Assembly (NCBI GenBank): GCA_963667035.1
Contig: OY762964.1
Span: forward strand, 1,536,001-1,600,000
Direction: 5' to 3'
DNA length: 64,000 nt
From: Candidatus Cloacimonadales bacterium
GTDB lineage: Bacteria > Cloacimonadota > Cloacimonadia > Cloacimonadales > JAFGVF01
Shown piece by piece: positions 27,591-45,965 of the stretch; the first letter of the stretch is position 1; every line of letters begins with the position of its first letter. The translations under genes were made by a program, and so were the position numbers. Under the pieces are notes generated by a model. It was not told the DNA's origin, made no database searches, and saw only the letters and a program-made list of their open reading frames with translations.

Positions 27591-28827
27591 CTGGCATCCC
27601 CCCGTTTTTTATCATAAGCATGTCATCTGCTCCCATTCTGCATGACAACCTTGATACTTTGGAACAAAGTAATGCTTCCAATCTCTGAATAGATTTTTAA
27701 CAACAACCGATAGTCTGTAGTAGATAAACTTACATAATTCCTTTAGATTACTCTTTTTACTAAGCATAATGTGTTGATACATTTCCGCAAAGTCGTATCG
27801 ATACTTATCCAAAGAATAAAGATAACTGACTGCCAATAATAACATGCAGTTCAGATTTCTTAACCTGTCCAATGTCATAACCTGCATATCTTCCCACGAA
27901 TACTCCTGCTTCACATGACGGTGTACTTCTTCTACTTTCCAGCGGAGACGATACCCTCTTATTGCAGTTGTTATCAACTCCAAATCACTAAGGTCTCGAT
28001 TGGGGAAATCACAGTTCAAATAGAAAAAACCTTTGACGCGAATGATATATGAAGCCTCATTCTCTGTTAAATAGTTGATTACTACCTTATCATCATAACC
28101 TCTATCCATTACATATATCCCTTTATTTCCTGAATACACCTGAATATCATTGATCCGATCAAACACAGACTGTTTCAGTATGCCCGGATCTTCGTCGTTA
28201 GTATGCAATTCAGACACAAGAGGACGTATCTCAAGCGAATGACCTTCTTTTGATACTCTGATTATATCTAATACTTCATAACCGTTACACCACTCGCCTG
28301 TACTGCCGTCTCTAACTCTGGTTAATCCTTCCATCTTCTTTGAATGGCTTTTCATTATGTCGCTGGGATCAATGACTATCAGGTCATAAGATGCTATCTT
28401 CTTGCTTTCACAAATCAGATGAATATTTGATAGATTTTTGTACAACTCAGGTTTTGATAAATGACGACGATATCGTTCGCAGAGCTTTTCTAATGAGATA
28501 TTCACTTCATGGCTCATTGCAATCCTTCTGATTATACAACTACCGGATTTCAAAATGCCACTGACAAGCTCTTTTACAAATTTCTTCTCTTTGATAGTAC
28601 AGCTATGTGTGACTTTGTTGATGAATTTTGAAAATTTAGCTTGCAGATTATGCTTTTTTATTATTGATAGTTCCATATAGTGAGTTCCTTTTGTTTTATT
28701 TTAAGCGTAACAACAATAAATAGGGACTCACTCTTTTCAAGCTTTTTCTTGACTATTTTTATACTTAAATTACCACTTTTTCAGTCACTTATTATGACCA
28801 TTATTCTAAATTTCGGGGGGATGCTTG
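27591..28827 (-). mobile_element. IS4-family insertion sequence (1237 bp)
   Basis: Terminal IRs CTGGCATCCCCCCG / CAAGCATCCCCCCG, and a 10-bp target duplication TTAAAAGAAG at 27581-27590 and 28828-28837. Confidence 0.9.
27612..28676 (-). CDS. IS4-family DDE transposase, probably internally deleted
   Basis: IDPS, DRGY and the Y-2-R-3-E-6-K motif (YRLRWKVEEVHRHVK). Confidence 0.85.
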   Translation of the reverse strand: MELSIIKKHNLQAKFSKFINKVTHSCTIKEKKFVKELVSGILKSGSCIIRRIAMSHEVNISLEKLCERYRRHLSKPELYKNLSNIHLICESKKIASYDLIVIDPSDIMKSHSKKMEGLTRVRDGSTGEWCNGYEVLDIIRVSKEGHSLEIRPLVSELHTNDEDPGILKQSVFDRINDIQVYSGNKGIYVMDRGYDDKVVINYLTENEASYIIRVKGFFYLNCDFPNRDLSDLELITTAIRGYRLRWKVEEVHRHVKQEYSWEDMQVMTLDRLRNLNCMLLLAVSYLYSLDKYRYDFAEMYQHIMLSKKSNLKELCKFIYYRLSVVVKNLFRDWKHYFVPKYQGCHAEWEQMTCL

Positions 28828-28940: not shown

Positions 28941-31900
28941 CTATTTGAGTAACAACATTTTCTTAGTAATTGATTTCTTAGAAGTCTCTAATCTATAGAA
29001 GTAAACTCCTGATCCTGTTTCTTTACCTAAACTATTTTTCCCATCCCACACTATTTCATGCCTTCCAACGGACATCTCCTGATTAACCAATGTAGCGACT
29101 TTCTGTCCCTTAATATTATAGACAGAAAGTTTTACCATAGTCTCTTTTGGAATTGAGAATGAGATTGTGGTTATTGGATTGAATGGGTTGGGATAGTTGT
29201 TACTTAGCTCAACCCACTTTGGAATAGCAAAACCATCATTAAAATCCTTATCAAAACTGACTAAATGGTAGTCAGTAGTGAATGGTTGTATTGGCTCATC
29301 TACAAACCATTCTGTATCTTCATTGTAAACGAAATAGTTATTCATGCTTTTACGATCTTTCTGTTGAGTGATCAATTCAAAATGGATTTGAGAGTTTGAT
29401 TTTGCAGATACAATATCTGTATATGCTAGTATTTGGGTTTTCCCTTCATCAACAAAAGATGACCCAACGCATGTATCACCAATATATGCACCGATCTCTA
29501 CTATATCGTCATCAATATCAATAATGTCAATCGCTTCATAATCATCTGTCTTTTTATATACAAATGTATCAGATTCTTTTACAATCACAGGACTTTTTGT
29601 TGGTACTTGAGTTCCTAAATTCCATCTAAAATCCTCAATTCGCTCTTTTACTCTCACTATATAACCTCTACCGAAATTTAGCGGTCTTATATTATGGCTT
29701 AATGGTATCGTTAGGTCATCTTTTTTTAGCGAGTTTTGGGGAGTATCCTTTTTATAATACCAAAGTTCTGATTTTATAGATGCTACTTTACTAAAATCAT
29801 TTCCAAAGGCTGCATCCATATCCTGACTATTTCTCCAATAACCAACCCAATTATCAACTCCTGGTTCTAAAGTGACGTCATGATGTTGAATTTCATAACC
29901 ATCGCTAAATTGAATACAGTATTGGTTATCATTTCTATTCATCTCCAATTTGTAGGATGATAATGGAGAGAAGGAAAAGCTCGGATTATCTAAAATCCAT
30001 TGATTGTTAATATAATTCAATCCTCCATCATCACTTTTGATAGACAGCCCGAAGGGATTAAGCAATTGGAAAATATACTCATTATCAGCTCCAACAAATA
30101 AGTATGGGAATGAAATCCAGTTCCAACCATTATGTAGTGCGGTAAAAGCTGAAATAGGAATCACTATTTCAGGATTATATATATCATTTGTATTTATAGT
30201 CAGTTCTCCAAAGTAATCTTTATACATTTTGTGGGGAGTGATCTTTACTTTGAAACAAAGACTATCACTTGGAGGAATAACACTTGGAAGTGAAATAATC
30301 TCTAAAACATTACTTAATTGAGCACTTACTGTATGTGAAGTAATCTGAAGATTATTTTGATCTGAATTATTCCGAATCCAGATTTTTCTAACATATCCTC
30401 CATCAGGTATGATGTTCCCAAAGCAGATTTCTGCATTTGAAGTTGATACTGCAGCTCCATCTTGAAAATACTCAACTGCTCCAACATCAATATTCCCGCC
30501 AAGAACTCGAAGGTTATTCAAGACATCTGTATAGGGGAAGGTTACCCCCATTTCATATGATGACTCAATATCTTCTACCGATGAGCCTGAGTTATAACAT
30601 GATGAATTAGTTGAAATTTGAAAACCATCAATTATATTAATTCCTCCTACAATAGAAGATATGGGGTTATAATCTACATTATTCCAGTTATGCCATACAC
30701 CTAAAGGATATTCATAACCCGTTACAATTCCGCCATTATTCCCGGTATCAAAAGCATTATGATTGAAAAATAATGCTGGAGTTATAGTGCAAGCTGTCTT
30801 AATAAGAAAATCTGTTGATCCACTAGTAATATTCGCAGTATTGTTACTAAAGATGTTATTTACAAAGTTGTAAGTTGAAGAAGGTAAATCCTGATAAAAA
30901 CACCCTCCCCAGTTAATTGAATTATTTTGGGTAAAAGTATTATTAACAAACAATATAGGCCCTCTGTTGTCTATATTTAATTCCCCATTTCTTCCATTAA
31001 TATAGAAAGCTCCACCGTTATACGAAAAATTATCAACAAACACATTTGATACAAACTCTTTTCGGAAAGTTAAATCACTTTCATAAAGATATACGGCACC
31101 TCCCGCACAGTTTGAATTTATCGCAGGGGATGTACTTTCGAATCCTGTCACCTTCCCATTCCCTTCAAAATAACAATTTACAACACTTAAATCAGCATGT
31201 TGGCACCATATAGCACCTCCCTCGACTGCATCATTATTAATAAACTCACAGTTGGCAAAATTTACTTGTACCCTTGCTTGATTAAGTTCATTATGGGAAT
31301 ATTCATGGCTATCAATATATACAGCTCCTCCTGAATAAGCAGTGTTATTTTCGAATCTGCACCTATTAAAATCAACATTTATCTCTGTTTCTGATGCAGC
31401 GTTTACAATTATTGCTCCCCCAGTATGAGATTCAGGTTCATCTTGTGTGTTTCCTTGAGTTTCGCAGGATAAAAAGTTACAATTATCAAATAAAACATTC
31501 TTCCCTGATTCATCAAAGCCCCAAATAGAGCCAATATAAACTGCAGTTTTCGCATCCGTAAAATTAACATTTCTGAATTCAGAGTCAGCTGAACTTTCGG
31601 ATTGAAGGAAGTTAATACCTTTCCAGCTATTACCATCAATCCCTGTAAAAGATACAGGATTATTTTCAGTACCAATAACTTTGATACGACCGAGCACAGC
31701 AATAGCACAAAACTGCTCAATAGATATATTTAAATCTTCATTTGGATTTAGAGATTGAATAATAAGCTGAGTATTCTCTGGTATGCTAATCTTCGAATGT
31801 GGCCTTCCATAAATATCTACACCTAAAAGTACATATAGATTTCCTAATGTTTCATGCCCAATAATATCGTCGGGGAAAGTCATATCTTGGGTGATATAGA

Positions 31901-33401
31901 AAGTTTGGTCGAATGAATTATCATCATATCGTGAAACAGTTTTCTTTAAGTAATTGTGGTATCTTTGCTTTGCTGCATTTTTATCATGTTCCGGATTATA
32001 TGGCCAACTCTGATTGGAATACCAAAATCCGGGAGCGCTTGATCTGTTTGCAAGGTAGTATGATTGATCATTTTTTACTTCATTGGATGAACAATATGGA
32101 ATACTATGTGACCATGTTTGAGTATATGTAAAACCGAAAAAAGAAACTTTTTTTATTCGATTATGTCGTTCGAATGGTTTAAAATAACTTCTAAACCTTC
32201 TCGGGAACTTTAAAAAATTGCTTTGAAACCAGTTTACATTTTGAAGATAATTGTAATTTGTGATTTGTCTGGGTTGCATAACCCAGTCACAAGCGTCCGT
32301 GCAACTCATTAGCATTTCTAACAAACTCGGTATAAATGGAGATATCCCCCATGTACCGACTCCCATTATCCATAAACCTTTATCGGAAGACCTATTTCTA
32401 AAGAAAGCATTGTCTTTGCCATTAGCTCTATGGAAAGAATCTACCCACATCCATCCGACTTGATTTCCTTCAAAAAGGTTTTCTTTAGGACCTCCATATT
32501 GTCCTCCAGATTGAGAACTTGTCTCCCCATGGCAGCTAATATCTGCTACATAAGAATTAGGTAAATAATCAAAATCAGAATGCCTCCTTCCTGTTGAATA
32601 ATTATATCCGTAAACATTCCATTTTGCTTCATTTTGCACTAGCATTGCGTGTCTCATACTGTAAAAGATGTTATTTTCTATTAAGCAGTGCTGAGATGCA
32701 TTTTCAGTGATTACACCGTATCCAAACCCTCCGGCACCAACGTCCTGAGCTCCTTTAAAGTAGCAACCTGTTACTTCAATATGTTCACTCTTACTTATGT
32801 CTATATGATGCTTAACTGGATTTCGACTCTCAACCCCGACTACCCAACAGTTTGACGCTTTTTGGATAAGAATGTTATGTCCTTGCTGACTATCTAAGCC
32901 ATCTGAATGTGTACTATCTAACCGTTCAATTACAATATCTTCAATACCGGAAGAGACCAATATATGCTCTTGTACAGGTGGAGTTTGGTTTGGCTTCGCT
33001 TCTACTCCCTTGATTTCTATGCAATTATTAGTATTTGCCATATCAAATCGTAAAACTGTTCTGTTAGCATTATTCTCTCCATCCTTGAACATGTGATTGC
33101 CTCTTAATACAACATAGTCAGCTAATACTAGCTCATCAGTAAATAAATATTCACCAGGAGAAAGTATTACCCTGCGAATAGCTGATGAATTTCCAGACAC
33201 TAACAATGCTGATCTAATATCTTCTTCAGTATTAGTAGTGTTAAAAGGATAATCTACAAAATTAACGGGAAAACCATTTTCAAGTCCGGCCTGTTGCCAC
33301 TCATGACTTTTATTATTAACATGGCTGTATTCGGTATCATAAACAGAAAATAAGAAATATAAATTAATTAGAAATAGTATCGCGAGTATATATTTTTTCA
33401 T
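28941..33401 (-). CDS. Large secreted beta-helix protein (gene C) with GGA(I/V)/FxxN repeats, Ig-like region and FlgD/T9SS-type sorting domain
   Basis: Signal peptide, pectate-lyase-like N-terminal beta-helix (GYGV, CLIENNIF..MRHAM), Pmp-like GGAI/GGAV repeats, NYPNPFNP...WDGK...SGVYFYRL...KKMLLLK. Confidence 0.75.
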   Translation of the reverse strand: MKKYILAILFLINLYFLFSVYDTEYSHVNNKSHEWQQAGLENGFPVNFVDYPFNTTNTEEDIRSALLVSGNSSAIRRVILSPGEYLFTDELVLADYVVLRGNHMFKDGENNANRTVLRFDMANTNNCIEIKGVEAKPNQTPPVQEHILVSSGIEDIVIERLDSTHSDGLDSQQGHNILIQKASNCWVVGVESRNPVKHHIDISKSEHIEVTGCYFKGAQDVGAGGFGYGVITENASQHCLIENNIFYSMRHAMLVQNEAKWNVYGYNYSTGRRHSDFDYLPNSYVADISCHGETSSQSGGQYGGPKENLFEGNQVGWMWVDSFHRANGKDNAFFRNRSSDKGLWIMGVGTWGISPFIPSLLEMLMSCTDACDWVMQPRQITNYNYLQNVNWFQSNFLKFPRRFRSYFKPFERHNRIKKVSFFGFTYTQTWSHSIPYCSSNEVKNDQSYYLANRSSAPGFWYSNQSWPYNPEHDKNAAKQRYHNYLKKTVSRYDDNSFDQTFYITQDMTFPDDIIGHETLGNLYVLLGVDIYGRPHSKISIPENTQLIIQSLNPNEDLNISIEQFCAIAVLGRIKVIGTENNPVSFTGIDGNSWKGINFLQSESSADSEFRNVNFTDAKTAVYIGSIWGFDESGKNVLFDNCNFLSCETQGNTQDEPESHTGGAIIVNAASETEINVDFNRCRFENNTAYSGGAVYIDSHEYSHNELNQARVQVNFANCEFINNDAVEGGAIWCQHADLSVVNCYFEGNGKVTGFESTSPAINSNCAGGAVYLYESDLTFRKEFVSNVFVDNFSYNGGAFYINGRNGELNIDNRGPILFVNNTFTQNNSINWGGCFYQDLPSSTYNFVNNIFSNNTANITSGSTDFLIKTACTITPALFFNHNAFDTGNNGGIVTGYEYPLGVWHNWNNVDYNPISSIVGGINIIDGFQISTNSSCYNSGSSVEDIESSYEMGVTFPYTDVLNNLRVLGGNIDVGAVEYFQDGAAVSTSNAEICFGNIIPDGGYVRKIWIRNNSDQNNLQITSHTVSAQLSNVLEIISLPSVIPPSDSLCFKVKITPHKMYKDYFGELTINTNDIYNPEIVIPISAFTALHNGWNWISFPYLFVGADNEYIFQLLNPFGLSIKSDDGGLNYINNQWILDNPSFSFSPLSSYKLEMNRNDNQYCIQFSDGYEIQHHDVTLEPGVDNWVGYWRNSQDMDAAFGNDFSKVASIKSELWYYKKDTPQNSLKKDDLTIPLSHNIRPLNFGRGYIVRVKERIEDFRWNLGTQVPTKSPVIVKESDTFVYKKTDDYEAIDIIDIDDDIVEIGAYIGDTCVGSSFVDEGKTQILAYTDIVSAKSNSQIHFELITQQKDRKSMNNYFVYNEDTEWFVDEPIQPFTTDYHLVSFDKDFNDGFAIPKWVELSNNYPNPFNPITTISFSIPKETMVKLSVYNIKGQKVATLVNQEMSVGRHEIVWDGKNSLGKETGSGVYFYRLETSKKSITKKMLLLK

Positions 33402-33410
33402 TGTTTCTCC

Positions 33411-34418
33411 CTAAAAATCATATGGATGTTGTCTTTGAGTCTTGCTTATTAATCTTGTGCTGTTTTTATTAAACGAGACCTTTCCCGATTGACGATCAAA
33501 TTTAACATAATCGCCAGTCTGCATAAAATACATTAGCGGATATTCTTGGGAACCGCATAGGCAAATGTTTTCTTTGGATGTATCTAACACTAAGTAGGAA
33601 TAAGCTCTCTGAGTGGATTCAATAAACAAAACCTGTGAATCTAAGCTATTGATGTCTATCTGCAAAAGAGTGCGTGAAGCCTGTAGAAGATATATAGAAT
33701 TATCATAGTCTGTTATCATATCAACAAGCGAGCTATCGTTATAAACAAGGCTATCAATACCAGTAATTATATCATAACAGTATAAACCATCTGGTTTGAC
33801 ATCTGGAGTGCTTGAAATCAAATAAAAAACTTTATCTGAAACAATACATTTATCACTAATATTAATGTAATTGTCATTCTCTTCCCTTATTAGCTCTGTT
33901 TCGGTATTATTGGTCAAATCATATATAAGCAGAGCCCCAGAACGAACCTCCTGATTATAAATAGATCTACTATAAACTAACTTCGTATTATCAGTAGAAA
34001 TTGAAGCATCATGCTCTCTGATATCAGGGGTATTAGTAATCTGTATTAGATTCGACCCGTCAACATTGGCAATGTAGATATCATAATTGTATTCCATTAC
34101 CATTTTAGTTCTGTCCTGACTTATTTCGACAATATTCCCTACACCTAATAAGATACCTTCCCATAAAGTTCCTTCGGAATTGAGTGAGTAAACAGAACTG
34201 AAACCGCTAATGATAATCTTTTCCTGCTCTGGATTACTTAAGTCTGCTACATAGAAAGGAGACCCTCCCCCTGCAAATAGGTAATCAATCTCACTTCCAT
34301 CAATATTCATGGTAGCAGTCCATTCTTCGGACCAGTACTTACCCTCATCTGAATAATCAAAACACGAAGTTAAAAGAAGCAACAACACTAAAATCACGAA
34401 TGATTTAATGTATCTCAT
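33411..34418 (-). CDS. TolB-like beta-propeller lipoprotein (gene B, copy in the intact operon)
   Basis: Lipobox LLTSC and the PD40-like motif DIYIANVDGSNLIQITNTP..E..ASIS.D. Confidence 0.7.
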   Translation of the reverse strand: MRYIKSFVILVLLLLLTSCFDYSDEGKYWSEEWTATMNIDGSEIDYLFAGGGSPFYVADLSNPEQEKIIISGFSSVYSLNSEGTLWEGILLGVGNIVEISQDRTKMVMEYNYDIYIANVDGSNLIQITNTPDIREHDASISTDNTKLVYSRSIYNQEVRSGALLIYDLTNNTETELIREENDNYINISDKCIVSDKVFYLISSTPDVKPDGLYCYDIITGIDSLVYNDSSLVDMITDYDNSIYLLQASRTLLQIDINSLDSQVLFIESTQRAYSYLVLDTSKENICLCGSQEYPLMYFMQTGDYVKFDRQSGKVSFNKNSTRLISKTQRQHPYDF

Positions 34419-34420
34419 TA

Positions 34421-35164
34421 TTAGTCCCCTCTTCGAAATTCAATCAACTCAAGTGCACTACTCTTCACAAAGCCTTTGTTTTGTTGATTTAAGATTTCAA
34501 GCGAATTCAACATTCCCAATGTAACTCCCGTAAATGGGATTAGTTTGGGTATATCCTCCGAAAAGTACAAAGAGGCTTCTTTCTCAATTTGCTCAAGTTG
34601 GTCCTGAGCTAATTTTTGCTTATACATTTCAGGTATTTCCATATTTACTTTTGTACAGGTTATATCTCTGGAGTTAACCGAGACAGCATATTCTGCTCTG
34701 TCATTTTGAGAAAAACTGAAAGGCATTAAAGCGGCTGCCTGTTCTCTAACTAAACTGAAATTGGCTTCAACCTCGCTCTTGCGTAACAGCTTTGGTGTTT
34801 GCTTGACCTTATTTTCATCATAACCATAAAAATCGACTATCTGATTAGAAACCGGGTCCCAAGTTGTGTAAGTTATATTCCCATCAAAAGATTCCTTAAT
34901 AACAATACCTTTACTCGACTCTTCAATTACTTCTAAGCTGACAAACTCTTCGCTTTGATTTTCACTTGAGAGGTCGCTATTGACACGATAGACTACCTTG
35001 TCCCCGACCTTCAAATCAATACCAAAACGGCTCCCGGCTGTGTATTGAAGTGTGCTCAACATATCCTTTTGTGCTTGTTCTTCAATCTCTCTGTCAGATA
35101 GTTCTTTTGCTACAAGAAACAACACTGTTGACAGTACTAGTGCAATTAAGACAAATTTCTTCAT
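34421..35164 (-). CDS. Exported hypothetical protein (gene A)
   Basis: Signal peptide MKKFVLIALVLSTVLFLVA, RBS AGGAG. No recognisable family. Confidence 0.7.
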   Translation of the reverse strand: MKKFVLIALVLSTVLFLVAKELSDREIEEQAQKDMLSTLQYTAGSRFGIDLKVGDKVVYRVNSDLSSENQSEEFVSLEVIEESSKGIVIKESFDGNITYTTWDPVSNQIVDFYGYDENKVKQTPKLLRKSEVEANFSLVREQAAALMPFSFSQNDRAEYAVSVNSRDITCTKVNMEIPEMYKQKLAQDQLEQIEKEASLYFSEDIPKLIPFTGVTLGMLNSLEILNQQNKGFVKSSALELIEFRRGD

Positions 35165-35252
35165 AAATGCTCCTTTGTTTTCCGAATCGATTACTTAGAC
35201 TAATTAATAGGCTAAATTGTTGTACGATTCGCTTATTAGATTTCCATACTAT

Positions 35253-35546
35253 TTATTTTGAATTTGAGACACAAATACAACATATAGTATGATTATTTTA
35301 CCTTCCCATACCTACAGTAAATCAACTTTTGTCTTTCTTTCCTAGAATTGTGTAGCAATGTTAGTAATGATAAATTACATGGCAAGTATTTATTCATTTT
35401 TTCTTGCATCGCTTCATAGGACTATTTAGAGATTTCGCTTATCTTTCACCCCTTTAAGGTTTAATCATATTTAGGGGATACACGCCCCATGCGACAAGTG
35501 CATGGGGCTATTAAACAATAGCTCCTTCAGAGCAAAATTAAAAAAG
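35253..35546. repeat. About 294-bp duplicated upstream/promoter region (copy of 42204-42496)
   Basis: Near-identical sequence, including a GCCCCATGC...GCATGGGGC REP-like hairpin. Confidence 0.9.
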
Positions 35547-35569
35547 CCCGGACTGTTCCTGGCTTTTAA

Positions 35570-35707
35570 ATAGAAGTCTCTAATCTATAGAAGTAAACTC
35601 CTACTCCTGTTTCTTTACCTAAACTATTTTTCCCATCCCACACTATTTCATGCCTTCCAACGGACATCTCCTGATTAACCAAATGTAGCGAGTAAAATCT
35701 TCTTCAT
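35570..35707 (-). pseudogene. Collapsed remnant of gene C (start joined directly to C-terminal sorting domain)
   Basis: RBS + ATG AAG AAG ATT TTA CTC GCT ACA, then DNA matching about 28979-29098 (LVNQEMSVGRHEIVWDGKNSLGKETG.GVYFYRLETS) out of frame, then a terminator copy. Confidence 0.85.
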
Positions 35708-35717
35708 TGTTTCTCCT

Positions 35718-36743
35718 TTAAAAATCATCTGGATGTCGTCTTGAGATAACGCTAATTATTTTTGTACTGTTTAAATTAAAAGTAGCATATCCAATAGGCT
35801 TCGGTAAGTAAAATATATCTCCGGTTTTCATAGAGTAAATCCAATCATTTCCATTGTTTGTATCTCCACAAAATGCAAGGTATTCGTAAGTTGGATTGAA
35901 GCTCAATACGCCTCGAAATCCAACTCCTTTACCACCTATCAAGTCATGACTGGCAAAAGTATTAATATCCATTTCCACAATACCTTCAGAAGAAGCCAAG
36001 AAATAAACTGCATCCGTGCTATTTGATATAATATTTCCGGTTGAAGAACAGGAATACACCAGAGAATCAGTAAGCGTTGACATATTTAAGTTATATATTC
36101 CTCTTGGTTTTACATTCAATTCATACCATTTATAGTAAAAAATCTTATCAGAGATAATGCATTTCTCTCGAATAAATGTATGCTTTTCAGTTTCTTCGCG
36201 TAAGAGAATAGTCTCTGTATCAGTATTAAGGTTGTATCCATTAATTGAAATCCAATTCAATTCATCTGGATCAAGAGCATTTAAAGGCCATTGATTATAC
36301 ACAACCATCGAGTTATCTGCAGAAATAGAGGCAAAATCCTCTCTCAGGTCAGGTGTATTTGTAAGGTTTCTAAGTCCGGTACCATCGACATTAGCAACAT
36401 AGATATCATAATTATACTCCATTACCATTTTAGTTCGGTCCTGACTTATTTCGACAATATTCCCTACATCTAATAAGATACCTTCCCACAAAGTTCCTTC
36501 GGAATTGAGTGAATAAACAGAACTGGAACTGCTCATGATAATCTTTTCCTGCCCTGGATTACTTAAGTCTGCTACATAGAAAGGAGTTTGTGCACCTTTT
36601 AGTAGGTAATCAATCTCACTCCCATCAATATTCATGGTAGCAGTCCATTCTTCGGACCAGTACTTACCCTCATCTGAATAATCATAACAGGAGGTTATAA
36701 GAAGTAATAGCAATAGAATCGCTATTGATTTTATAAATCGCAT
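35718..36743 (-). CDS. Gene B variant 5 (beta-propeller lipoprotein)
   Basis: Lipobox LITSC. Paralog of 33411-34418 with a divergent C-terminal half. Confidence 0.8.
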   Translation of the reverse strand: MRFIKSIAILLLLLLITSCYDYSDEGKYWSEEWTATMNIDGSEIDYLLKGAQTPFYVADLSNPGQEKIIMSSSSSVYSLNSEGTLWEGILLDVGNIVEISQDRTKMVMEYNYDIYVANVDGTGLRNLTNTPDLREDFASISADNSMVVYNQWPLNALDPDELNWISINGYNLNTDTETILLREETEKHTFIREKCIISDKIFYYKWYELNVKPRGIYNLNMSTLTDSLVYSCSSTGNIISNSTDAVYFLASSEGIVEMDINTFASHDLIGGKGVGFRGVLSFNPTYEYLAFCGDTNNGNDWIYSMKTGDIFYLPKPIGYATFNLNSTKIISVISRRHPDDF

Positions 36744-36745
36744 AA

Positions 36746-37027
36746 TTAATTTCCTTTTATGAATTCTACTAATTCAAGGACGCTACTCTTCACAAAGCCT
36801 TTGTTTTGTTGATTTAAGGTTTCAAGCGAATTCAACATTCCCAATGTAACTCCCGTAAATGGGATTAGTTTGGGTATATCCTCAAAAAGAGTAGGGAAAT
36901 CGTTCTCTAAACCAGCAGACTGCCACTGGTGACTCTCATTATTAACATGGCTGTATTCGGTATCATAAACAGAAAATAAGAAATATAAATTAATTAGAAA
37001 TAGTATCGTGAGTATATATTTTTTCAT
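36746..37027 (-). CDS. Chimeric 93-aa linker ORF (5' of gene C fused to 3' of gene A)
   Basis: MKKYIL...GLENDFPTLF from C joined to EDIPKLIPF...EFIKGN from A. Confidence 0.75.
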   Translation of the reverse strand: MKKYILTILFLINLYFLFSVYDTEYSHVNNESHQWQSAGLENDFPTLFEDIPKLIPFTGVTLGMLNSLETLNQQNKGFVKSSVLELVEFIKGN

Positions 37028-37035
37028 TGTTCCCC

Positions 37036-38049
37036 TTAAAAATCATATGGATGTTGTCTTTGGGTTGTGCTTATTAATCTTGTACTGTTTTTATTAAACG
37101 AGACCTTTCCCGATTGACGATCAAATTTTACATAATCACCTGTCTGTATAAAATACATTAGCGGATATGCTTCGGAATCGCATAAACAAATGTTTTCTTT
37201 GGATGGGTCTAACACTAATTCGTTATAATATCTCTGAGTGGATTCAATAAACAATACCTGAGAATCAAAGCTATTCATGTCTATTTGCAAAAGAGTGCGC
37301 GAAGCCTGTAGAAGATATACAGAATTATCATAGTCTGTTATCATATCAACAAGCGAGCTATCGTTATAAACAAGGCTATCAATACCAGTAATTATATCAT
37401 AACAGTATAAACCATCTGGTTTGACATCTGGAGAGCTTGAGATTGAATAGAATATCTTATTTGAGGCAACGCATGTATCTCTTATTCTAAGATAATTGCT
37501 ATTGCTATTCTCTTCTCGTAACAGTTCTGTCTCAGTATTCTCCATCAAATCATATATAAGCAGAATCTCAGAACGAACCTCCTGATTATTAATATATCGA
37601 CTATAAACAATTTGTGAGTTATCAGCAGAAATTGAAGCATCATGCTCTCTGATATCAGGGGTATTAGTAATCTGTATTAGATTCGATCCGTCAACATTGG
37701 CAATGTAGATATCCAGATTATATTCCATCAACATTTTTGTTCTGTCCTGACTTATTTCAACAATGTTTCCCATATCTGTAAGGATATTATCCCCCAAAGT
37801 TCCATCTTCATTCATGGATAATACTGCTGTGTTAGCACCAATAATGATTCTCTCTTCTTCCGGATTGTCTAAATCTGCAACATAATAAGGAGTGCCTCCC
37901 CACTGAATCAGGAATTTTCTTTCACTTCCGTCAATATTCGTGGTAGCAATCCATGATTCTGTCCAGTGTTTACCCTCATCTGAATAATCAAAACACGAAG
38001 TCATAAGAAGCAACAACACTAAAATCACGAATGATTTAATGTATCTCAT
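37036..38049 (-). CDS. Gene B variant 4
   Basis: Lipobox LMTSC, mosaic paralog of B. Confidence 0.8.
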   Translation of the reverse strand: MRYIKSFVILVLLLLMTSCFDYSDEGKHWTESWIATTNIDGSERKFLIQWGGTPYYVADLDNPEEERIIIGANTAVLSMNEDGTLGDNILTDMGNIVEISQDRTKMLMEYNLDIYIANVDGSNLIQITNTPDIREHDASISADNSQIVYSRYINNQEVRSEILLIYDLMENTETELLREENSNSNYLRIRDTCVASNKIFYSISSSPDVKPDGLYCYDIITGIDSLVYNDSSLVDMITDYDNSVYLLQASRTLLQIDMNSFDSQVLFIESTQRYYNELVLDPSKENICLCDSEAYPLMYFIQTGDYVKFDRQSGKVSFNKNSTRLISTTQRQHPYDF

Positions 38050-38051
38050 TA

Positions 38052-38333
38052 TTAGTCCCCTCTTCGAAATTCAATCAACTCAAGTGTACTACTCTTCACA
38101 AAGCCTTTGCTTTGTTGATTTAAGGTTTCAAGCGAATTCAACATTCCCAATGTAACTCCCGTAAATGGGATTAGTTTGGGTATATCCTCAAAAAGAGTAG
38201 AGAAATCGTTCTCTAAACCAGCAGACTGCCATTGGTGACTTTTATTATTAACATGGCTGTATTCGGTATCATAAACAGAAAATAAGAAATATAAATTAAT
38301 TAGAAATAGTATCGTGAGTATATATTTTTTCAT
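38052..38333 (-). CDS. Chimeric C'::'A linker ORF
   Basis: Same junction as 36746-37027, ends EFRRGD. Confidence 0.75.
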   Translation of the reverse strand: MKKYILTILFLINLYFLFSVYDTEYSHVNNKSHQWQSAGLENDFSTLFEDIPKLIPFTGVTLGMLNSLETLNQQSKGFVKSSTLELIEFRRGD

Positions 38334-38341
38334 TGTTCCCC

Positions 38342-39352
38342 CTAAAAATCATATGGATGTTGTCTTTGGGTTGTGCTTATTAATCTTGTGCTGTTTTTAT
38401 TAAACGAGACCTTTCCCGATTGACGATCAAATTTTACATAATCACCTGTCTGTATAAAATACATTAGCGGATATTTTTGGGAACCGCATAAGCAAATGTT
38501 TTCTTTGGATGGACCTAACACTAAGTAGGAATAAGATCTCTGAGTGGGTTCAATATACAAAACCTGTGAATCTAAGCTATTGATGTCTAACTGCAAAAGA
38601 GTGCGTGAAGCCTGTAGAAGATATACAGAATTTTCATAGTCTGTTATCATATCAACAAGAGAGCTATCGTTATAAACAAGGCTGTCAATCCCTGTATCAA
38701 TATCGATACAATATAGTCCTTTCGGTTTTGTCTCTGATACACTAAATTTAAAATAGTAATATACTTTATTAGAAACTATACATGTATTATTAACTGAGAA
38801 ATCTGTGATGTTATCTACTCGCATCAGTTCTGTCTCAGTATTCTCCATCAAATCATATATAAGCAGAGTCTCAGAACGAACCTCCTGATTATAAATATAT
38901 CTACTATAAACTAACTTCGTATTATCAGCAGAAATTGAAGCATCATGCTCCCAAATATCCGTTGTATTTGTAATGTTTCTAAGTCCGGTACCATCGACAT
39001 TAGCGACATAGATATCATAATTGTATACCATTACCATTTTGGTTCGGTCTTGACTTATTTCAACAATATTTCCCACATCCGTCAGAACATAATCTCCAAC
39101 AGTTCCGTCCTCATTCAGAGATAATACTGCATGGAAAGCATCAATAATGATCCTCTCCTCTCCAGGATTGTCCAAATCTGCAACATAATAAGGAGTTCCT
39201 CCCCACTGAATCAGGAATTCTCTTTCACTTCCGTCAATATTCGTGGTGGCAATCCATGATTCTGTCCAGTATTTACCCTCATCTGAATAATCAAAACAGG
39301 AGGCCAAAAGAAGTAATAGCAATAGAATCGCTATTGATTTTATAAATCGCAT
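38342..39352 (-). CDS. Gene B variant 3
   Basis: Lipobox LLASC, mosaic paralog of B. Confidence 0.8.
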   Translation of the reverse strand: MRFIKSIAILLLLLLLASCFDYSDEGKYWTESWIATTNIDGSEREFLIQWGGTPYYVADLDNPGEERIIIDAFHAVLSLNEDGTVGDYVLTDVGNIVEISQDRTKMVMVYNYDIYVANVDGTGLRNITNTTDIWEHDASISADNTKLVYSRYIYNQEVRSETLLIYDLMENTETELMRVDNITDFSVNNTCIVSNKVYYYFKFSVSETKPKGLYCIDIDTGIDSLVYNDSSLVDMITDYENSVYLLQASRTLLQLDINSLDSQVLYIEPTQRSYSYLVLGPSKENICLCGSQKYPLMYFIQTGDYVKFDRQSGKVSFNKNSTRLISTTQRQHPYDF

Positions 39353-39354
39353 AA

Positions 39355-39636
39355 TTAATTTCCTTTTCTGAATTCTACTAATTCAAGGACGCTACTCTTC
39401 ACAAAGCCTTTGCTTTGTTGATTTAAGATTTCAAGCGAATTCAACATTCCTAATGTAACTCCCGTAAATGGGATTAGTTTGGGTATATCCTCAAAAAGAG
39501 TAGGAAAATCGTTCTCTAAACCAGCAGACTGCCATTGGTGACTTTTATTATTGATATGGCTGTATTCGGTATCATAAACCGGATGGATCAGGTTTGATGA
39601 AATTGCTAATAAGATTATAATAATAATTCTTTTCAT
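39355..39636 (-). CDS. Chimeric C'::'A linker ORF with a different signal-peptide allele
   Basis: True start is ATG 39636 (MKRIIIIILLAISSNLIHPVYDTEYSH), 93 aa. The track's extension to 39810 overlaps B2 and is spurious. Confidence 0.72.
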   Translation of the reverse strand: MKRIIIIILLAISSNLIHPVYDTEYSHINNKSHQWQSAGLENDFPTLFEDIPKLIPFTGVTLGMLNSLEILNQQSKGFVKSSVLELVEFRKGN

Positions 39637-39646
39637 TGTTGCCCCT

Positions 39647-40663
39647 TTAAAAATCTTGAGGGAAAAATCTTTCAACAACACAAACAATATGTGTAGCTTC
39701 ACTATTGAAAGAAGCATCTCGTATGCTTCTTGGATTATAGTAATACTCATCAGTGCTGATATCGTACATGAAATCATTCTTTTGTGAATTACTAATACAT
39801 AAATATTCATTATGCGGGCTTATGATGAGATCAATAGGATTACCGATTACTTTACTTTCTCCAATATATCCCTGTATGATGAAAGTCTGTAAATCAATTT
39901 CAATTACTGATTGAGTAGAAAGGTTAGCAAAATAAAAGACATCAGTATAATCACTTACGATGTTGCTATTGACATAATTATCATAAACTTTAATATTCTC
40001 ATTATTGTTTAAATCAATTCTAAACAATCCTTCATTTTCCTCTTCATCGTAATATGTTCTATAGAAATACACATAATCCTGTAAAACATAGATCTTTTCA
40101 TAAATAAAATAACTGTTTCGTTCTTCTTGAAAAAGTTTTGTTGATATATCAATATTTAAATCGTATAGATTCAATGAAATAACATAATAGTTATCAATAA
40201 TCGATTCGTTCCGGACAAAGACTACTTTATTGTTATCAGCAGAAATTGCTGCATTTCGTTCTGATAAATTTGGAGTATTCGTAATATTCCTCAATCCAGT
40301 TCCATCGACATTGGCAATGTAGATATCTTGATTATATTCCAATAATATCTTGGTTTTATCACGACTAACTTCAACAATATTTCCTACTTCTGACAAAACT
40401 GTTTCCTGTTTAGAGCCATCAGTATTCATTGAAACAATATATTCGCTATAATCAAGAAGTATCTTCTCGTTTGTTGTATCACTCAGGTCTTTAACATAAA
40501 AAGGTGTCATATCACCTTTAAAAAGGTAATTTACCTCACTTCCATCAATATTCATGGTGGCAATCCATGATTCTGTCCAGTGCTTACCCTCATCTGAATA
40601 ATCATAACACGAAGTCATAAGAAGCAACAACACTAAAATCACGAATGATTTAATGTATCTCAT
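39647..40663 (-). CDS. Gene B variant 2 (most divergent)
   Basis: Lipobox LMTSC, shared N-terminus, unique body, ends ERFFPQDF. Confidence 0.8.
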   Translation of the reverse strand: MRYIKSFVILVLLLLMTSCYDYSDEGKHWTESWIATMNIDGSEVNYLFKGDMTPFYVKDLSDTTNEKILLDYSEYIVSMNTDGSKQETVLSEVGNIVEVSRDKTKILLEYNQDIYIANVDGTGLRNITNTPNLSERNAAISADNNKVVFVRNESIIDNYYVISLNLYDLNIDISTKLFQEERNSYFIYEKIYVLQDYVYFYRTYYDEEENEGLFRIDLNNNENIKVYDNYVNSNIVSDYTDVFYFANLSTQSVIEIDLQTFIIQGYIGESKVIGNPIDLIISPHNEYLCISNSQKNDFMYDISTDEYYYNPRSIRDASFNSEATHIVCVVERFFPQDF

Positions 40664-40665
40664 TA

Positions 40666-40947
40666 TTAGTCCCCTCTTCGAAATTCAATCAACTCAAGTG
40701 TACTACTCTTCACAAAGCCTTTGCTTTGTTGATTTAAGGTTTCAAGCGAATTCAACATTCCCAATGTAACTCCCGTAAATGGGATTAGTTTGGGTATATC
40801 CTCAAAAAGAGTAGGGAAATCGTTCTCTAAACCAGCAGACTGCCATTGGTGACTTTTATTATTAACATGGCTGTATTCGGTATCATAAACAGAAAATAAG
40901 AAATATAAATTAATTAGAAATAGTATCGTGAGTATATATTTTTTCAT
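40666..40947 (-). CDS. Chimeric C'::'A linker ORF
   Basis: Same junction, ends EFRRGD. Confidence 0.75.
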   Translation of the reverse strand: MKKYILTILFLINLYFLFSVYDTEYSHVNNKSHQWQSAGLENDFPTLFEDIPKLIPFTGVTLGMLNSLETLNQQSKGFVKSSTLELIEFRRGD

Positions 40948-40956
40948 TGTTTCTCC

Positions 40957-41964
40957 CTAAAAATCATATGGATGTTGTCTTTGAGTCTTGCTTATTAATC
41001 TTGTGCTGTTTTTATTAAACGAGACCTTTCCCGATTGACGATCAAATTTTACATAATCACCTGTCTGTATAAAATACATTAGAGGATATGCTTCGGAATC
41101 ACATAGACAAATGTTTTCTTTGGATGGGTCTAACACTAAGTCGTTATAATATCTCTGAGTGGATTCAATAAACAATACCTGAGAATCAAAGCTATTCATG
41201 TCTATTTGCAAAAGAGTGCGTGAAGCCTGTAGAAGATATATAGAATTATCATAGTCTGTTATCATATCAACAAGCGAGCTATCGTTATAAACAAGGCTAT
41301 CAATACCAGTAATTATATCATAACAGTATAAACCATCTGGTTTGACATCTGGAGTGCTTGAAATCAAATAAAAAACTTTATCTGAAACAATACATTTATC
41401 ACTAATATTAATGTAATTGTCATTCTCTTCCCTTATTAGCTCTGTTTCGGTATTATTGGTCAAATCATATATAAGCAGAGCCCCAGAACGAACCTCCTGA
41501 TTATAAATAGATCTACTATAAACTAACTTCGTATTATCAGCAGAAATTGAAGCATCATGCTCTCTGATATCAGGGGTATTAGTAATCTGTATTAGATTCG
41601 ATCCGTCAACATTGGCAATGTAGATATCCAGATTATATTCCATCAACATTTTTGTTCTGTCCTGACTTATTTCAACAATGTTTCCCATATCTGTAAGGAT
41701 ATTATCCCCAAAAGTTTCATCATCATTCAAATATGATACTGATATGTAGTTATCAATAATAACCTTTTCTTCTCCCGGATTGTCCAAATCTGCAACATAA
41801 AAAGGAGGACCACCACCCTTAGCTAAGTATTCAATCTCACTTCCATCAATATTCATAGTAGCAGTCCATTCTTCGGACCAGTACTTACCCTCATCTGAAT
41901 AATCAAAACAGGAGGTCAAAAGAAGTAATAGCAATAGAATCGCTATTGATTTTATAAATCGCAT
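40957..41964 (-). CDS. Gene B variant 1
   Basis: Lipobox LLTSC. Central region nearly identical to 33411-34418. Confidence 0.8.
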   Translation of the reverse strand: MRFIKSIAILLLLLLLTSCFDYSDEGKYWSEEWTATMNIDGSEIEYLAKGGGPPFYVADLDNPGEEKVIIDNYISVSYLNDDETFGDNILTDMGNIVEISQDRTKMLMEYNLDIYIANVDGSNLIQITNTPDIREHDASISADNTKLVYSRSIYNQEVRSGALLIYDLTNNTETELIREENDNYINISDKCIVSDKVFYLISSTPDVKPDGLYCYDIITGIDSLVYNDSSLVDMITDYDNSIYLLQASRTLLQIDMNSFDSQVLFIESTQRYYNDLVLDPSKENICLCDSEAYPLMYFIQTGDYVKFDRQSGKVSFNKNSTRLISKTQRQHPYDF

Positions 41965-41966
41965 AA

Positions 41967-42188
41967 TTAATTTCCTTTTATGAATTCTACTAATTCAAGG
42001 ACGCTACTCTTCACAAAGCCTTTGTTTTGTTGATTTAAGGTTTCAAGCGAATTCAACATTCCCAATGTAACTCCCACAAATGGAATTAATTTAGGGATGC
42101 TCTCCGAAAAATACAAAGAGGCTTCTTCCTCAATTTGCTCAAGTTGGTCCTGAGCTAATTTTTGCTTATACATTTCAGGTATATCCAT
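41967..42188 (-). pseudogene. 5'-truncated copy of gene A (last 73 aa)
   Basis: MDIPEMYKQKLAQDQLEQIEEEASLYFSE... matches the C-terminus of 34421-35164. The signal peptide and N-terminal 174 aa are missing. Confidence 0.85.
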
Positions 42189-42490
42189 GATTAAGCAAAA
42201 TACTTATTTTGAATTTGAGACACAAATACAACATATAGTATGATTATTTTGCCTTCCCATACCTACAGTAAATCAACTTTTGTCTTTCTTTCCTAGAATT
42301 GTGTAGCAATGTTAGTAATGATAAATTACAAGGCAAGTATTTATTCATTTTTTCTTGCATCGCTTCATAGGACTATTTAGAGAATTCGCTTATCTTTCGC
42401 CTCTTTAAGGTTTAATCATATTTAGGGATACACACCCCATGCGACAAGTGCACGGGGCTATTAAACGGTAGCTCCTTCAGAGTAAAATTG

Positions 42491-42516
42491 AAAAAGGGAA
42501 GCAAAATACTTCCCTT
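42491..42516 (-). terminator. Terminator after pyrF
   Basis: AAGGGAAG-caaaata-CTTCCCTT with an adjacent A-run (T-run on minus strand). Confidence 0.65.
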
Positions 42517-43904: not shown

Positions 43905-44389
43905 TTAATTACTACTTCAAAGTTACGTCAAGGATAAATTGTTCTTGTTGTTTCCCATACTACTTTATGAAGTGTGTTTCCTTTTCCATTAGCATCTGCA
44001 CAACTTGGAAATTAACTCTTATAAATCTCCGGTCCTCCCGATTTTTCATTGTTTTATCGTTTTTTTCTCGTGACCAATAACCACATCCAACTGGCAAGAC
44101 TCTTGCATAATCCTTGCATAAATCATGCATAATTATGTAAGAAAGTTGTAAGCATTTTGTGACATTGATGTTCCGATTTTGTGTTTGTTAATCATGGCTA
44201 AATCAGGAGAAAAAAGCGAGAAATTCTAAAAAGTTCCGAATAGCATACACTAAAATAGCAATTCTATGCCCTCTAATTTATATGGGAGATTTAAAATAGT
44301 TGTGATTTACCAGAGTGAAAATCGCATTTCCCGGAGTTATATATAATAGAGGAAACATATATCCTCAAAAAAGTGAAATGGAGGAAATT

Positions 44390-44842
44390 ATGAAACTTAG
44401 TCTGTTACCTTTATTGACCGGTTTATCAGGTAGACTTGGTAAACTTGTCTTTTGTATCGAGAAGAGTTCCGGTGCCTGTTGGACACGCTATTATGTTTAT
44501 CCTGAATTGACTGAACATAACCACAATATCGGGAGTGTCGGTAAGAATATGAGCATTATCTATCACTCAGCGAATATCGGTTATATCGAGGACCTGAAAA
44601 ACTATGTCGATAGGTATAATCTGAGTGGCTTCGGTAGTAACGGAAGATTGAGAGCGTTTACCTGCTTCACGAAGATGCTCTATAACTTAAAGAAATCACA
44701 CGAATCCGTTAACCTTAAGACCCTGACAATTGAGCAAATCATGAACGACGACCTTCCGGTTCGCTCAATTAAAGAAGCTATTGATAATCAGTTGTTACCT
44801 GCTGTGAGTCGGTATCAGGAACTGAATGTCTTAATTGTGTGA
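44390..44842 (+). CDS. Hypothetical protein (150 aa), N-terminus reminiscent of DUF6266-type G(L/F)SG(R/K)(L/V)G proteins
   Basis: GGAGG RBS before ATG 44390, TGLSGRLGKLVF motif, degraded paralog at 54413-54590. Family label is tentative. Confidence 0.6.
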   Translation: MKLSLLPLLTGLSGRLGKLVFCIEKSSGACWTRYYVYPELTEHNHNIGSVGKNMSIIYHSANIGYIEDLKNYVDRYNLSGFGSNGRLRAFTCFTKMLYNLKKSHESVNLKTLTIEQIMNDDLPVRSIKEAIDNQLLPAVSRYQELNVLIV

Positions 44843-44979
44843 AACCTATACAAGATATTGGAAAAGCACAGGTTCGTAACTAAGGTTGGATTCCTTTAAA
44901 ACCCCTACTTTGAAGTAGGGGTATATTGAATATATTTAACCTACTTCGGGGTTAATATCTATTTTGGGATTATTAACCC

Positions 44980-45965
44980 CGAATTACATTCGGGGCTATT
45001 CACAGGTTACCCCGTTGGGGTTAACAAAACAACACCATTTACGTTTAGAGATAATCATATTTAGCACCGTTGGGGATTAGCGAACTGCACAGAATTACAT
45101 TTGAGAAACTCATATTTAACTCCGATGGTGCTAATAAAAATACCCCGATTTACGTTTGGGGATACGTATAGGTAATCTCGTTAGTATTAGGAAAAGGCAA
45201 CCATTATCCCAACGGGATAAAATGTGAGTAGCCATGTATGAAATGCATGGTCAGTAATAACCAAGAACAACAAGCGACCCCGAAGTGGGTCGAATTGCAT
45301 TCGGGGCTACTCATAGGTTACCCCGTTGGGGTTAACAAAACAATACCATTCATGTATAGAGATAATCATATTTAGCACCATTGGGGATTAGCAAACTGAA
45401 TTGAATTACATTCGAGAGACTCATATTTAACTCCGATGGAGCTAGAATAAATACCCCGATTTACGTTTGGGGATACGTATAGGAAATCTCGTTAGTATTA
45501 GGAATAGGCAACCATTATCCCAACGGGATAAAATGTGAGTAGCCATGTATGAAATGCATGGTTAGTAATAACCAAGAACAACAAGCGACCCCGAAGTGGG
45601 TCGAATTGCATTCGGGGCTACTCATAGGTTACCCCGTTGGGGTTAACAAAACAATACCATTCATGTATAGAGATATTCATATTTAGCACCGTTGGGGATT
45701 AGCAAACTGATTTGAATTACATTTGAGAGACTCGTATTTAACTCCGATGGAGCTAGAATAAATACCCCGATTTACGTTTGGGGATACGTATAGGTAATCT
45801 CGTTAGTATTAGGAATAGGCAACCATTATCCCAACGGGATAAAATGTGAGTAGCCATGTATGAAATGCATGGTCAGTAATACCAACTCAAACAAGCGACC
45901 CCGAAGTGGGTCAAATTGCATTCGGGGTTACTCACAGGTTACCCCGTTGTAGTAAAAAACAACAC
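44980..45965. repeat. Tandem array of a 311-bp unit (3+ copies) built from REP-like palindromes
   Basis: CA(C/T)AGGTTACCCCGTTG recurs at 45001, 45312, 45623 and 45933. Internal hairpins ACCCCGTTGGGGT, ATCCCAACGGGAT, GACCCCGAAGTGGGTC, CCATGTATGAAATGCATGG. Confidence 0.92.

Follow-up and report, generated by a model that had tools for sequence, protein, structure and literature searches.

The six tandem lipoprotein genes of a 64,000-nucleotide (nt) stretch of the Candidatus Cloacimonadales bacterium genome (contig OY762964.1, positions 1,536,001 to 1,600,000; hereafter the window) are segmental mosaics of one another. These genes, named B1 to B6, all lie on one strand over 8.6 kb, within a minus-strand array delimited at positions 28941-42188 from the list of open reading frames (ORFs) of the window; all are full length (335-341 amino acids, aa), and each of the six has a start codon, a signal peptide and a lipobox. 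B6 alone sits in an intact operon, A-B6-C, between a gene for a protein with a signal peptide (A) and a gene for a predicted type IX secretion system (T9SS) cargo (C), while B1 to B5 are separated by short junction ORFs (J1-J4). The history that best accounts for the data, with a probability of about 0.8, is that the six-copy array grew from a conserved A-B-C operon by duplication, followed by exchange of segments among the copies, together with lateral exchange of the operon.

Whole-gene pairwise nucleotide identity among the copies ranges from 55 to 89% and is very uneven along the gene. Measured in 60-nt windows, B6 is 92-97% identical to B5 and 52-67% to B1 in alignment columns 181-300, whereas in columns 451-780 it is 100% identical to B1 and 40-63% to B5; in columns 751-930 its nearest copy is B3. 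The first-pass annotation, made from the sequence by eye, had described the same order of blocks in B6 (N-terminal with B5, central with B1, C-terminal with B3), and the protein alignment and the nucleotide windows agree on it. Every other shared block quoted there was likewise found in the protein alignment, including two common to B1 and B4 and one, beginning TESWIATTNIDGSER, common to B3 and B4. The longest conversion-like patch is an exact repeat between B6 and B1 (Table 1), which covers 358 alignment columns but 334 real bases and reaches 395 nt (33661-34055) if one mismatch is allowed. B1 and B6, 7.5 kb apart, lie at opposite ends of the array, and their identity drops on both flanks of the shared tract. 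Other exact tracts are common to B1 and B4 (176 nt) and to B1, B4 and B6 (113 nt).

Formal tests of recombination give a concordant picture. For the six genes the pairwise homoplasy index (PHI) comes to 0.267, where permutations average 0.442 (z = -33, none of 2000 permutations as low), and the four closest copies alone give z = -17 (0/2000); the neighbour similarity score (NSS) is 0.843 against 0.565 (0/2000). In a GENECONV-like longest-run test, five of the 15 pairs exceed all 2000 global permutations (maximum over all pairs), and, tested pair by pair, 11 of the 15 are equalled in run length by no more than 5 of 2000 permutations; the test is not significant for B1-B2 (1866/2000), B2-B5 (609) and B4-B5 (348), and marginal for B2-B3 (55). 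Maximum likelihood trees of six segments contain mutually exclusive clades at bootstrap 90-100: the signal-peptide tree separates B2+B4+B6 from B1+B3+B5, columns 131-300 recover B5+B6 and B3+B4, and the subsequent segments unite B1+B4 (301-424), B1+B6 (425-782) and B3+B6 (783-915). Approximately unbiased (AU) tests reject the tree of another segment in 25 of 30 comparisons at p < 0.05, the five non-rejecting ones involving the trees of segments 2, 4 and 6. Synonymous divergence (dS) between B1 and B6 takes the values 2.82, 0.09, 3.01, 0.22, 0.01, 0.30 and 0.14 along the gene, with 0.01 in columns 424-783 versus 3.01 in columns 130-300. The Hudson-Kaplan minimum number of recombination events (Rm) is 56 for the six copies, a figure inflated by multiple hits that is no event count, and 13 for the close four.

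PHI, NSS, the longest-run test, segment trees, AU tests and dS thus agree with the proposal of the first-pass annotation that the six B genes are segmental mosaics, and the opposite case considered there, a single consistent phylogeny along the gene, is rejected by the segment trees and AU tests. The B paralogs have recombined with one another, and several tracts look as gene conversion would leave them: internal patches of identity flanked on both sides by divergence, in copies that are not necessarily adjacent. Since dS is near 0 inside the tracts, some of these exchanges are recent; shuffling that is still going on, as the first-pass annotation inferred, is a possibility, and so is selection for diversity. 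The variable blocks show saturated dS and a ratio of nonsynonymous to synonymous divergence (dN/dS) well below 1, which indicates old alleles under purifying selection and not fresh hypervariation.

When each copy is painted with a copying model that takes the array members as sources (Table 1), B1, B3, B4 and B6 each resolve into 7-10 segments that derive from three or four of the remaining copies, with switch points near aa 20, 47-53, 109-112, 242-253 and 294. That switches fall in conserved islands, as had been noticed by eye, holds as a description, although it is partly so by construction because a switch can be placed only between informative sites. The unique cores of B2 and B5 stay outside the exchange. 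B2 has diverged furthest (it shares 40-45% aa identity with the other copies), its dS to each of them being saturated beyond the 5' end, and B4 has a signal peptide identical to that of B2 (58 nt). The 5' third of B5 (nt 55-326) is 95-98% identical to the gene of a sister species.

The growth of the array can be followed from the scars left between the copies. Each junction ORF matches nt 1-107 of C over its nt 1-107 (96%) and nt 598-744 of A over its nt 135-282 (96%), with 89-96% identity to A and C in blastn searches, and J1 agrees with J3 at 281 of 282 positions. All four are intact and in frame, and combine the signal-peptide start of C with the conserved C-terminal ~49 residues of A. The presence of these C-start/A-end chimeras between copies indicates that a unit made of the 3' end of A, B and the 5' start of C was duplicated in tandem. 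In addition, a remnant of a second C gene lies 3' of B5, next to a duplicate of the region upstream of A, whose counterpart (42201-42496) is found downstream of pyrF, between pyrF and a remnant of A. The C remnant and the duplicated upstream region together indicate that the duplication involved the whole operon including its upstream region. One duplication took in the whole A-B-C operon with this region. The upstream operon copy lost the greater part of A and almost the entire C, and unequal recombination amplified a unit in which a complete B is flanked by the final ~150 nt of A and the initial ~107 nt of C. It is the upstream operon copy that amplified B to five copies, the operon duplication having preceded the unit amplification. 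Finally, the ~40 nt that close A or the junction ORF are linked with the ~59 nt that open B (signal peptide): in all six units the two stretches occur together as one or the other of two alleles, in perfect alternation (B1, B3, B5 versus B2, B4, B6). The chance probability of a perfect alternation of two alleles is ~0.1 (2 of 20 arrangements), and the pattern hints that a two-unit block may have been amplified.

The locus of the sister species (genome G001) provides a view from outside the array. This genome has a single A-B-C locus at another genomic place, and its B gene matches B5 over the first third (95-98% identity), B4 next (98-100%) and B1/B6 from there on (98-100%), with exact runs of 118 and 80 nt in common with the array. 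Between the two species dS is 1.6 for pyrF, 1.9 for pyrR, and 2.1 and saturated for two further genes, as opposed to 0.30-0.34 for A, B6 and C. The low operon dS relative to housekeeping genes, combined with the absence of synteny, indicates that the A-B-C operon was exchanged laterally between species, and some mosaic segments were probably imported from outside the genome. The sister C gene (L018 10950-15467) is present as two ORFs of 369 and 1127 aa, which may reflect a frameshift, gene breakage or an error in the sequence.

A third locus, in a genome of another family of the same order (G023), has the arrangement A(244 aa)-B-B-B-C(1488 aa); identity to the counterparts in the window is 28% for A and 34% for C, the latter being homologous over its full length. 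As far as column ~409 the first B gene of this locus resembles the third (92-95%), and beyond that point it resembles the second (MaxChi, 0/5000); the switch occurs at the same conserved NLTGTPD-type motif; this three-copy array is an independent mosaic array. Overall, the B family is present in 24 of 201 sampled Cloacimonadota genomes (source genome included) and in 14 of 61 genera at E <= 1e-20. Six is the highest copy number seen, and adjacent copies also occur in G010, G023, G136, G142, G188 and G003. The two adjacent B-family genes of G003 (L019 4295-6383; 346 and 334 aa, 44 nt apart) have neither A nor C beside them and sit between lpxK-like and peptidase-like genes, as judged from translations only; B is therefore not confined to A-B-C operons. 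The source genome, a single 3.1-Mb contig, contains no further close B copy; its lone other B relative is distant (22% identity, G000:C1:1939849-1940346). A search with B of a set of 5.8 billion proteins returned 13 proteins at E <= 0.001, of which six come from the window itself, and no close external relative of B2 was found in this set.

According to its predicted structure, B is assigned as a seven-bladed beta-propeller closed by N- and C-terminal strands. The AlphaFold2 (AF2) model of B6 (mean predicted local distance difference test score, pLDDT, 87.3; predicted template modelling score, pTM, 0.83) has 28 strands, and consists of a signal-peptide helix (residues 2-19) directly followed by propeller strands from residue 29 to 331. 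Foldseek searches with this model retrieve seven-bladed propellers and TolB with E-values from 8e-11, the best being generic seven-bladed propellers (query-based TM-score, TMq, 0.60-0.64). No Pfam or NCBIfam family reaches its cut-off for B, the nearest Pfam signals being sub-threshold: PD40 for B2 (14.2 bits, cut-off 20.9) and DPPIV_N for B6 (13.2 bits, cut-off 22). Searches with phmmer reach thousands of PD40-repeat proteins via residues ~100-165, and distant database matches carry the names TolB or Tol component. B resembles TolB in its sub-threshold PD40-like signature and in the TolB chains among the Foldseek matches, but differs in being a 335-aa propeller-only lipoprotein that lacks the N-terminal alpha/beta domain of TolB. 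Among the close copies conservation is highest in blade 3 and variability in blades 2 and 5, and the conserved islands coincide with PD40-type strand motifs. When the variable blocks are mapped on the predicted propeller, as the first-pass annotation had suggested, the switch points match blade boundaries only in part.

The mature N-terminus of B is acidic and reads C-F/Y-D-Y-S-D-E-G-K in all six copies. The lipoprotein export signal (LES) reported for Bacteroidota is a K, Q or S with at least two acidic residues behind it, occupying +2 to +5 downstream of the lipidated cysteine (PMC5080379). The S-D-E of B lies at +5 to +7, off the optimal LES position, and the LES rule was defined in another phylum.

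C is predicted from its sequence to be a T9SS cargo with a C-terminal sorting domain (PF18962, 29.9 bits, cut-off 27; TIGR04183, 39.2 bits, cut-off 23), and the source genome has a SprA_N match over its cut-off. The same genome yields 144 matches to T9SS C-terminal sorting domains in 3.1 Mb, i.e., a very large predicted T9SS secretome. C has no match (0) among PDB sequences. For A, no Pfam or NCBIfam family scores above cut-off; it belongs to a small uncharacterised family of which nine relatives were found. Its model (pLDDT 83.9) gives weak fold matches, mostly to MucB/RseB, LolA, LolB, CT021 and DUF1849 (Z 5.5-6.8, where the trust level is ~8; Foldseek E >= 0.004), and the ESM Atlas gives unnamed clusters plus CT021 at 0.91, which serves as a lead only. 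A may possibly have a LolA-like fold, a weak lead from the model, and the idea that it could be a dedicated lipoprotein carrier for B is a lead and not a finding. In Bacteroidetes, accessory LolA/LolB proteins serve T9SS lipoproteins, according to the available part of a preprint (bioRxiv 10.1101/2024.09.13.612696). A prediction of the A and B6 complex scored 0.00, which gives no verdict and is used neither way.

The sequence itself was compared with Logan short-read contigs. The array-holding runs, X1 to X3, represent one sample, probably the source, and their contigs are broken up over the array; over switch points in B6, B3 and B4 their sequence agrees with the window at every base (0 differences). 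A 683-nt contig of X3 (33460-34142, 0 differences) crosses three B6 switches, and the X1 contigs 38596-38854, 38921-39302 and 37765-37999 show 0 differences each. This agreement confirms the sequence and is not independent biology. The contig joints 35682>38236, 35682>40850 and 42188>35253 were considered as variants and rejected: they have 30 letters on the short side or link the two copies of the upstream region, and are read as repeat-graph ambiguities. In X3 no contigs cover ~37220-40735, in the B1-B4 part of the array, yet over B5-A-B6 this run is about as deep as the others, and the 683-nt B6 contig is unbroken through the tract shared with B1; a shorter array or filtering could each produce this, and nothing is drawn from it. 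Runs X4-X7, which carry another organism label, match only a ~35-nt repeat, the X4 piece coming from a palindromic element upstream of A.

Taken together, these data fit a scenario in which whole-operon duplication, loss of most of A and C from the upstream copy and amplification of the B unit by unequal recombination were followed by the trading of internal segments of ~50-400 nt among the copies, which would have gone through homology-dependent and mostly non-reciprocal recombination. The mechanism would be interlocus gene conversion with some unequal crossing-over. Exchange would start in conserved stretches, i.e., the signal peptide, the lipobox and PD40-type strand motifs such as GNIVEISQDRTK and NITNTPD, and would be unable to enter the highly diverged B2 and B5 cores, which may persist as old distinct alleles. 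The net effect would be a set of co-resident propellers combining old alternative blade sequences. B itself is likely to be a polymorphic envelope or surface binding protein acting with the T9SS cargo C.

Several points weigh against this scenario. Gene conversion is formally inseparable from double crossovers with imported DNA, and the operon is laterally exchanged, its 118- and 80-nt exact runs being common to the sister species. No donors were found for the unique B2 and B5 cores and for several unique patches. The dN/dS well below 1 in the variable blocks gives no direct sign of diversifying selection. Top-face loops are modestly more variable (mean pairwise identity 0.49 versus 0.64, the face being assigned by canonical topology and not from coordinates), although whole strands also differ, which argues for segment replacement rather than loop hypervariation. 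The runs that contain the array come from one sample, as fragmented contigs, and show no new mosaics arising; no RNA run is listed among them.

The alternatives account for parts of these observations. A mosaic produced mainly by import of allelic segments of other strains or species at each copy, instead of exchange within the array, would be consistent with the dS of the A-B-C operon (0.30-0.34, against 1.6 to saturation for the four flanking genes), its different genomic place in G001, the mixture in the single G001 gene of segment types that are spread over B5, B4, B1/B6 and B3 in the array, the crossing of species by the exact runs of 118 and 80 nt, and the saturated dS of the B2 and B5 cores to all copies despite near-identical junctions around them. 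Such an origin is nevertheless unlikely, given that the longest and cleanest identity tracts (334, 176 and 113 nt exact) are internal to the array, where they reach lengths beyond any shared with G001, and that in the 5.8-billion-protein set the 13 matches to B include the window's own six and none close to B2. A cassette system of the antigenic-variation type, with B6 as the expression site and B1-B5 as silent donors, is suggested by the isolated position of B6 in the intact operon and by its patchwork of B4/B2-, B5-, B1- and B3-type segments; we consider it very improbable. Promoterless truncated cassettes would be expected, but all six copies are complete ORFs, B1-B5 follow their own duplicate of the A-upstream region (95.6%), mosaicism is mutual, B1, B3 and B4 being as patchy as B6, and no recombinase besides a DDE transposase was found among the 18 window ORFs scanned with Pfam. 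Nor was a reverse transcriptase found among these 18, which are not every ORF of the window, and mutagenesis of the diversity-generating retroelement (DGR) type was not examined.

Repeat arrays are prone to collapse and cross-polishing, and the short-read contigs do fragment over this one, so that identity blocks could in principle be assembly or polishing artefacts. This is extremely unlikely, as the contigs reproduce the window across switch points with 0 differences and the same type of mosaic recurs in the single-copy locus of G001 and in the G023 array. The coincidence of conserved islands with PD40-type strand motifs would also be expected if there had been no recombination at all, only uneven constraint or convergence along one duplication tree; the chance of this is close to nil, because dS for the same pair goes from 0.01 to ~3 between segments, which selection on the protein cannot produce, and the nearest neighbour changes with strong support, the 25 rejections among 30 AU comparisons excluding a shared tree. 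Duplication of a conserved operon followed by exchange among its B copies, together with lateral exchange, is thus retained as the main explanation. A bolder version of its functional side sees A-B(n)-C as a laterally mobile, T9SS-linked surface system in which B would be a polymorphic specificity determinant (receptor, adhesin, or target of phages or competitors), with ancient blade alleles kept by balancing selection and re-dealt among copies and species at conserved strand motifs; this is speculative, and we regard it as doubtful in its entirety.

The features of the locus are listed in Table 1. The array has pyrF and pyrR upstream, and a spacer of 550 nt separates B5 from the full-length A. 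The DDE transposase gene after C, the low operon dS and the non-syntenic sites all point to lateral transfer of the module. A terminator-like hairpin after the C remnant was noticed by eye only and went undetected in a promoter and terminator scan, whose 81 promoter-like sites against 65.7 expected are uninformative. The palindromic element upstream of A (~50 nt; ~35485-35539 and ~42440-42490) has more than 20 scattered copies at 80-94% identity in the G001 genome, and looks like a repetitive extragenic palindromic (REP)-like intergenic repeat from its sequence. Many short dispersed repeats of G001 are also matched by the intergenic segment at ~44060-45920, between a 175-aa ORF (44315-44842) and PmbA/TldD genes.

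Table 1. Features of the B array and its surroundings. Positions refer to the 64,000-nt window; segment types, from the copying model, are given in nt of each gene except for B6, where window positions are used.
Feature	Position	Strand	Description	Segment types
A remnant	41967..42188	-	5'-truncated, 73-aa ORF; matches A nt 523-728 at 90%; precedes B1	
B1	40957..41964	-	ORF, 335 aa; putative propeller lipoprotein, first array copy	1-54 B3-type; 55-134 B6-type; 236-424 B4-type; 425-744 B6-type; 745-915 B4-type; 916-1005 B6-type
J1	40666-40947	-	93-aa junction ORF between B1 and B2	
B2	39647..40663	-	ORF, 338 aa	1-129 common to B4/B6; core 130-1014 unique
J2	39355-39636	-	93-aa junction ORF between B2 and B3	
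B3	38342..39352	-	ORF, 336 aa	B1-, B4-, B5- and B6-type segments plus unique patches
J3	38052-38333	-	93-aa junction ORF between B3 and B4	
B4	37036..38049	-	ORF, 337 aa	58-211 B3-type; 236-431 B1-type (176 nt exact); 442-528 B3-type; 610-881 B1-type; 882-1011 B3-type
J4	36746..37027	-	93-aa junction ORF between B4 and B5	
B5	35718..36743	-	ORF, 341 aa	55-326 B6-type; 327-390 B3-type; core 391-1001 unique
Remnant of second C gene	35540..35717	-	3' of B5; C start codon + ~26 nt, then C nt 4304-4423 (97.5%)	
Second copy of region upstream of A	35250..35546	-	95.6% over 297 nt versus 42201-42496	
A	34421..35164	-	247 aa, secreted (signal peptide); stop 2 nt ahead of B6 start	
B6	33411..34418	-	ORF, 335 aa; copy of the intact A-B-C operon	34360-34418 B4/B2-type; 34093-34359 B5-type; 33661-34082 B1-type; 33537-33660 B3-type; 33414-33536 B1-type
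Exact B6-B1 tract	33661..33994 = 41207-41540	-	334 nt, longest conversion-like patch; exact repeat from string search	
C	28941..33401	-	1486 aa, predicted T9SS cargo; last gene of the A-B6-C operon	
DDE transposase gene	27612..28676	-	PF01609, E = 4.7e-10; directly downstream of C	

The array is an unusually legible case of how a repertoire of surface proteins is built, where the succession of events can be told from the scars and the tracts are resolved to single bases, in a phylum without genetic tools. It also defines a conserved, uncharacterised A-B(n)-C module of Cloacimonadota (putative LolA-like protein, propeller lipoprotein and T9SS cargo) that crosses species boundaries. Its evolution is the familiar one of surface-protein gene arrays and reveals no new mechanism; if the reading of B as a specificity determinant were true, the locus would be a free-living anaerobe's counterpart of pathogen surface-variation loci. 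Among the hits listed in literature searches there was no paper on the B gene family or on T9SS-linked propeller arrays in Cloacimonadota.

Interlocus gene conversion is well known among surface genes of host-associated pathogens under immune pressure, such as bab/sab of Helicobacter, opa of Neisseria and tpr of Treponema. The B array has in common with these systems the homology-dependent and non-reciprocal copying of internal tracts, mosaic genes and tracts at dS near 0, but differs in coming from uncultured Cloacimonadota, in being strictly tandem and in its visible duplication scars. With programmed antigenic variation of the vlsE and pilE-pilS type it shares several related cassettes beside an operon copy and segmental copying, whereas each of its copies is a complete gene that can be translated individually and has a signal peptide of its own, exchange runs in both directions, and dedicated machinery was not seen.

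Among described cases the nearest is the lpl (lipoprotein-like) cluster of the nuSa-alpha island of S. aureus, where the available portions of the report describe tandem same-strand lipoprotein paralogs with a conserved intra-ORF sequence acting as recombination site, phylogenetically incongruent 5' and 3' ORF parts, and a co-inherited unit that runs from the 3' end of an ORF across the spacer into the 5' end of the following ORF (Tsuru & Kobayashi 2008, PMC2568036). Both systems thus combine tandem lipoproteins, intragenic incongruence and a co-inherited end-start unit, the latter found here in all six units. The lpl work, as far as those portions go, compared many strains, as opposed to one genome and two related species here. 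Within the same limits, lpl proteins are of the DUF576 family and recombine at one central region, in contrast with a seven-bladed PD40-type propeller (as predicted), several switch points per gene and an array inside a T9SS-cargo operon in the present case.

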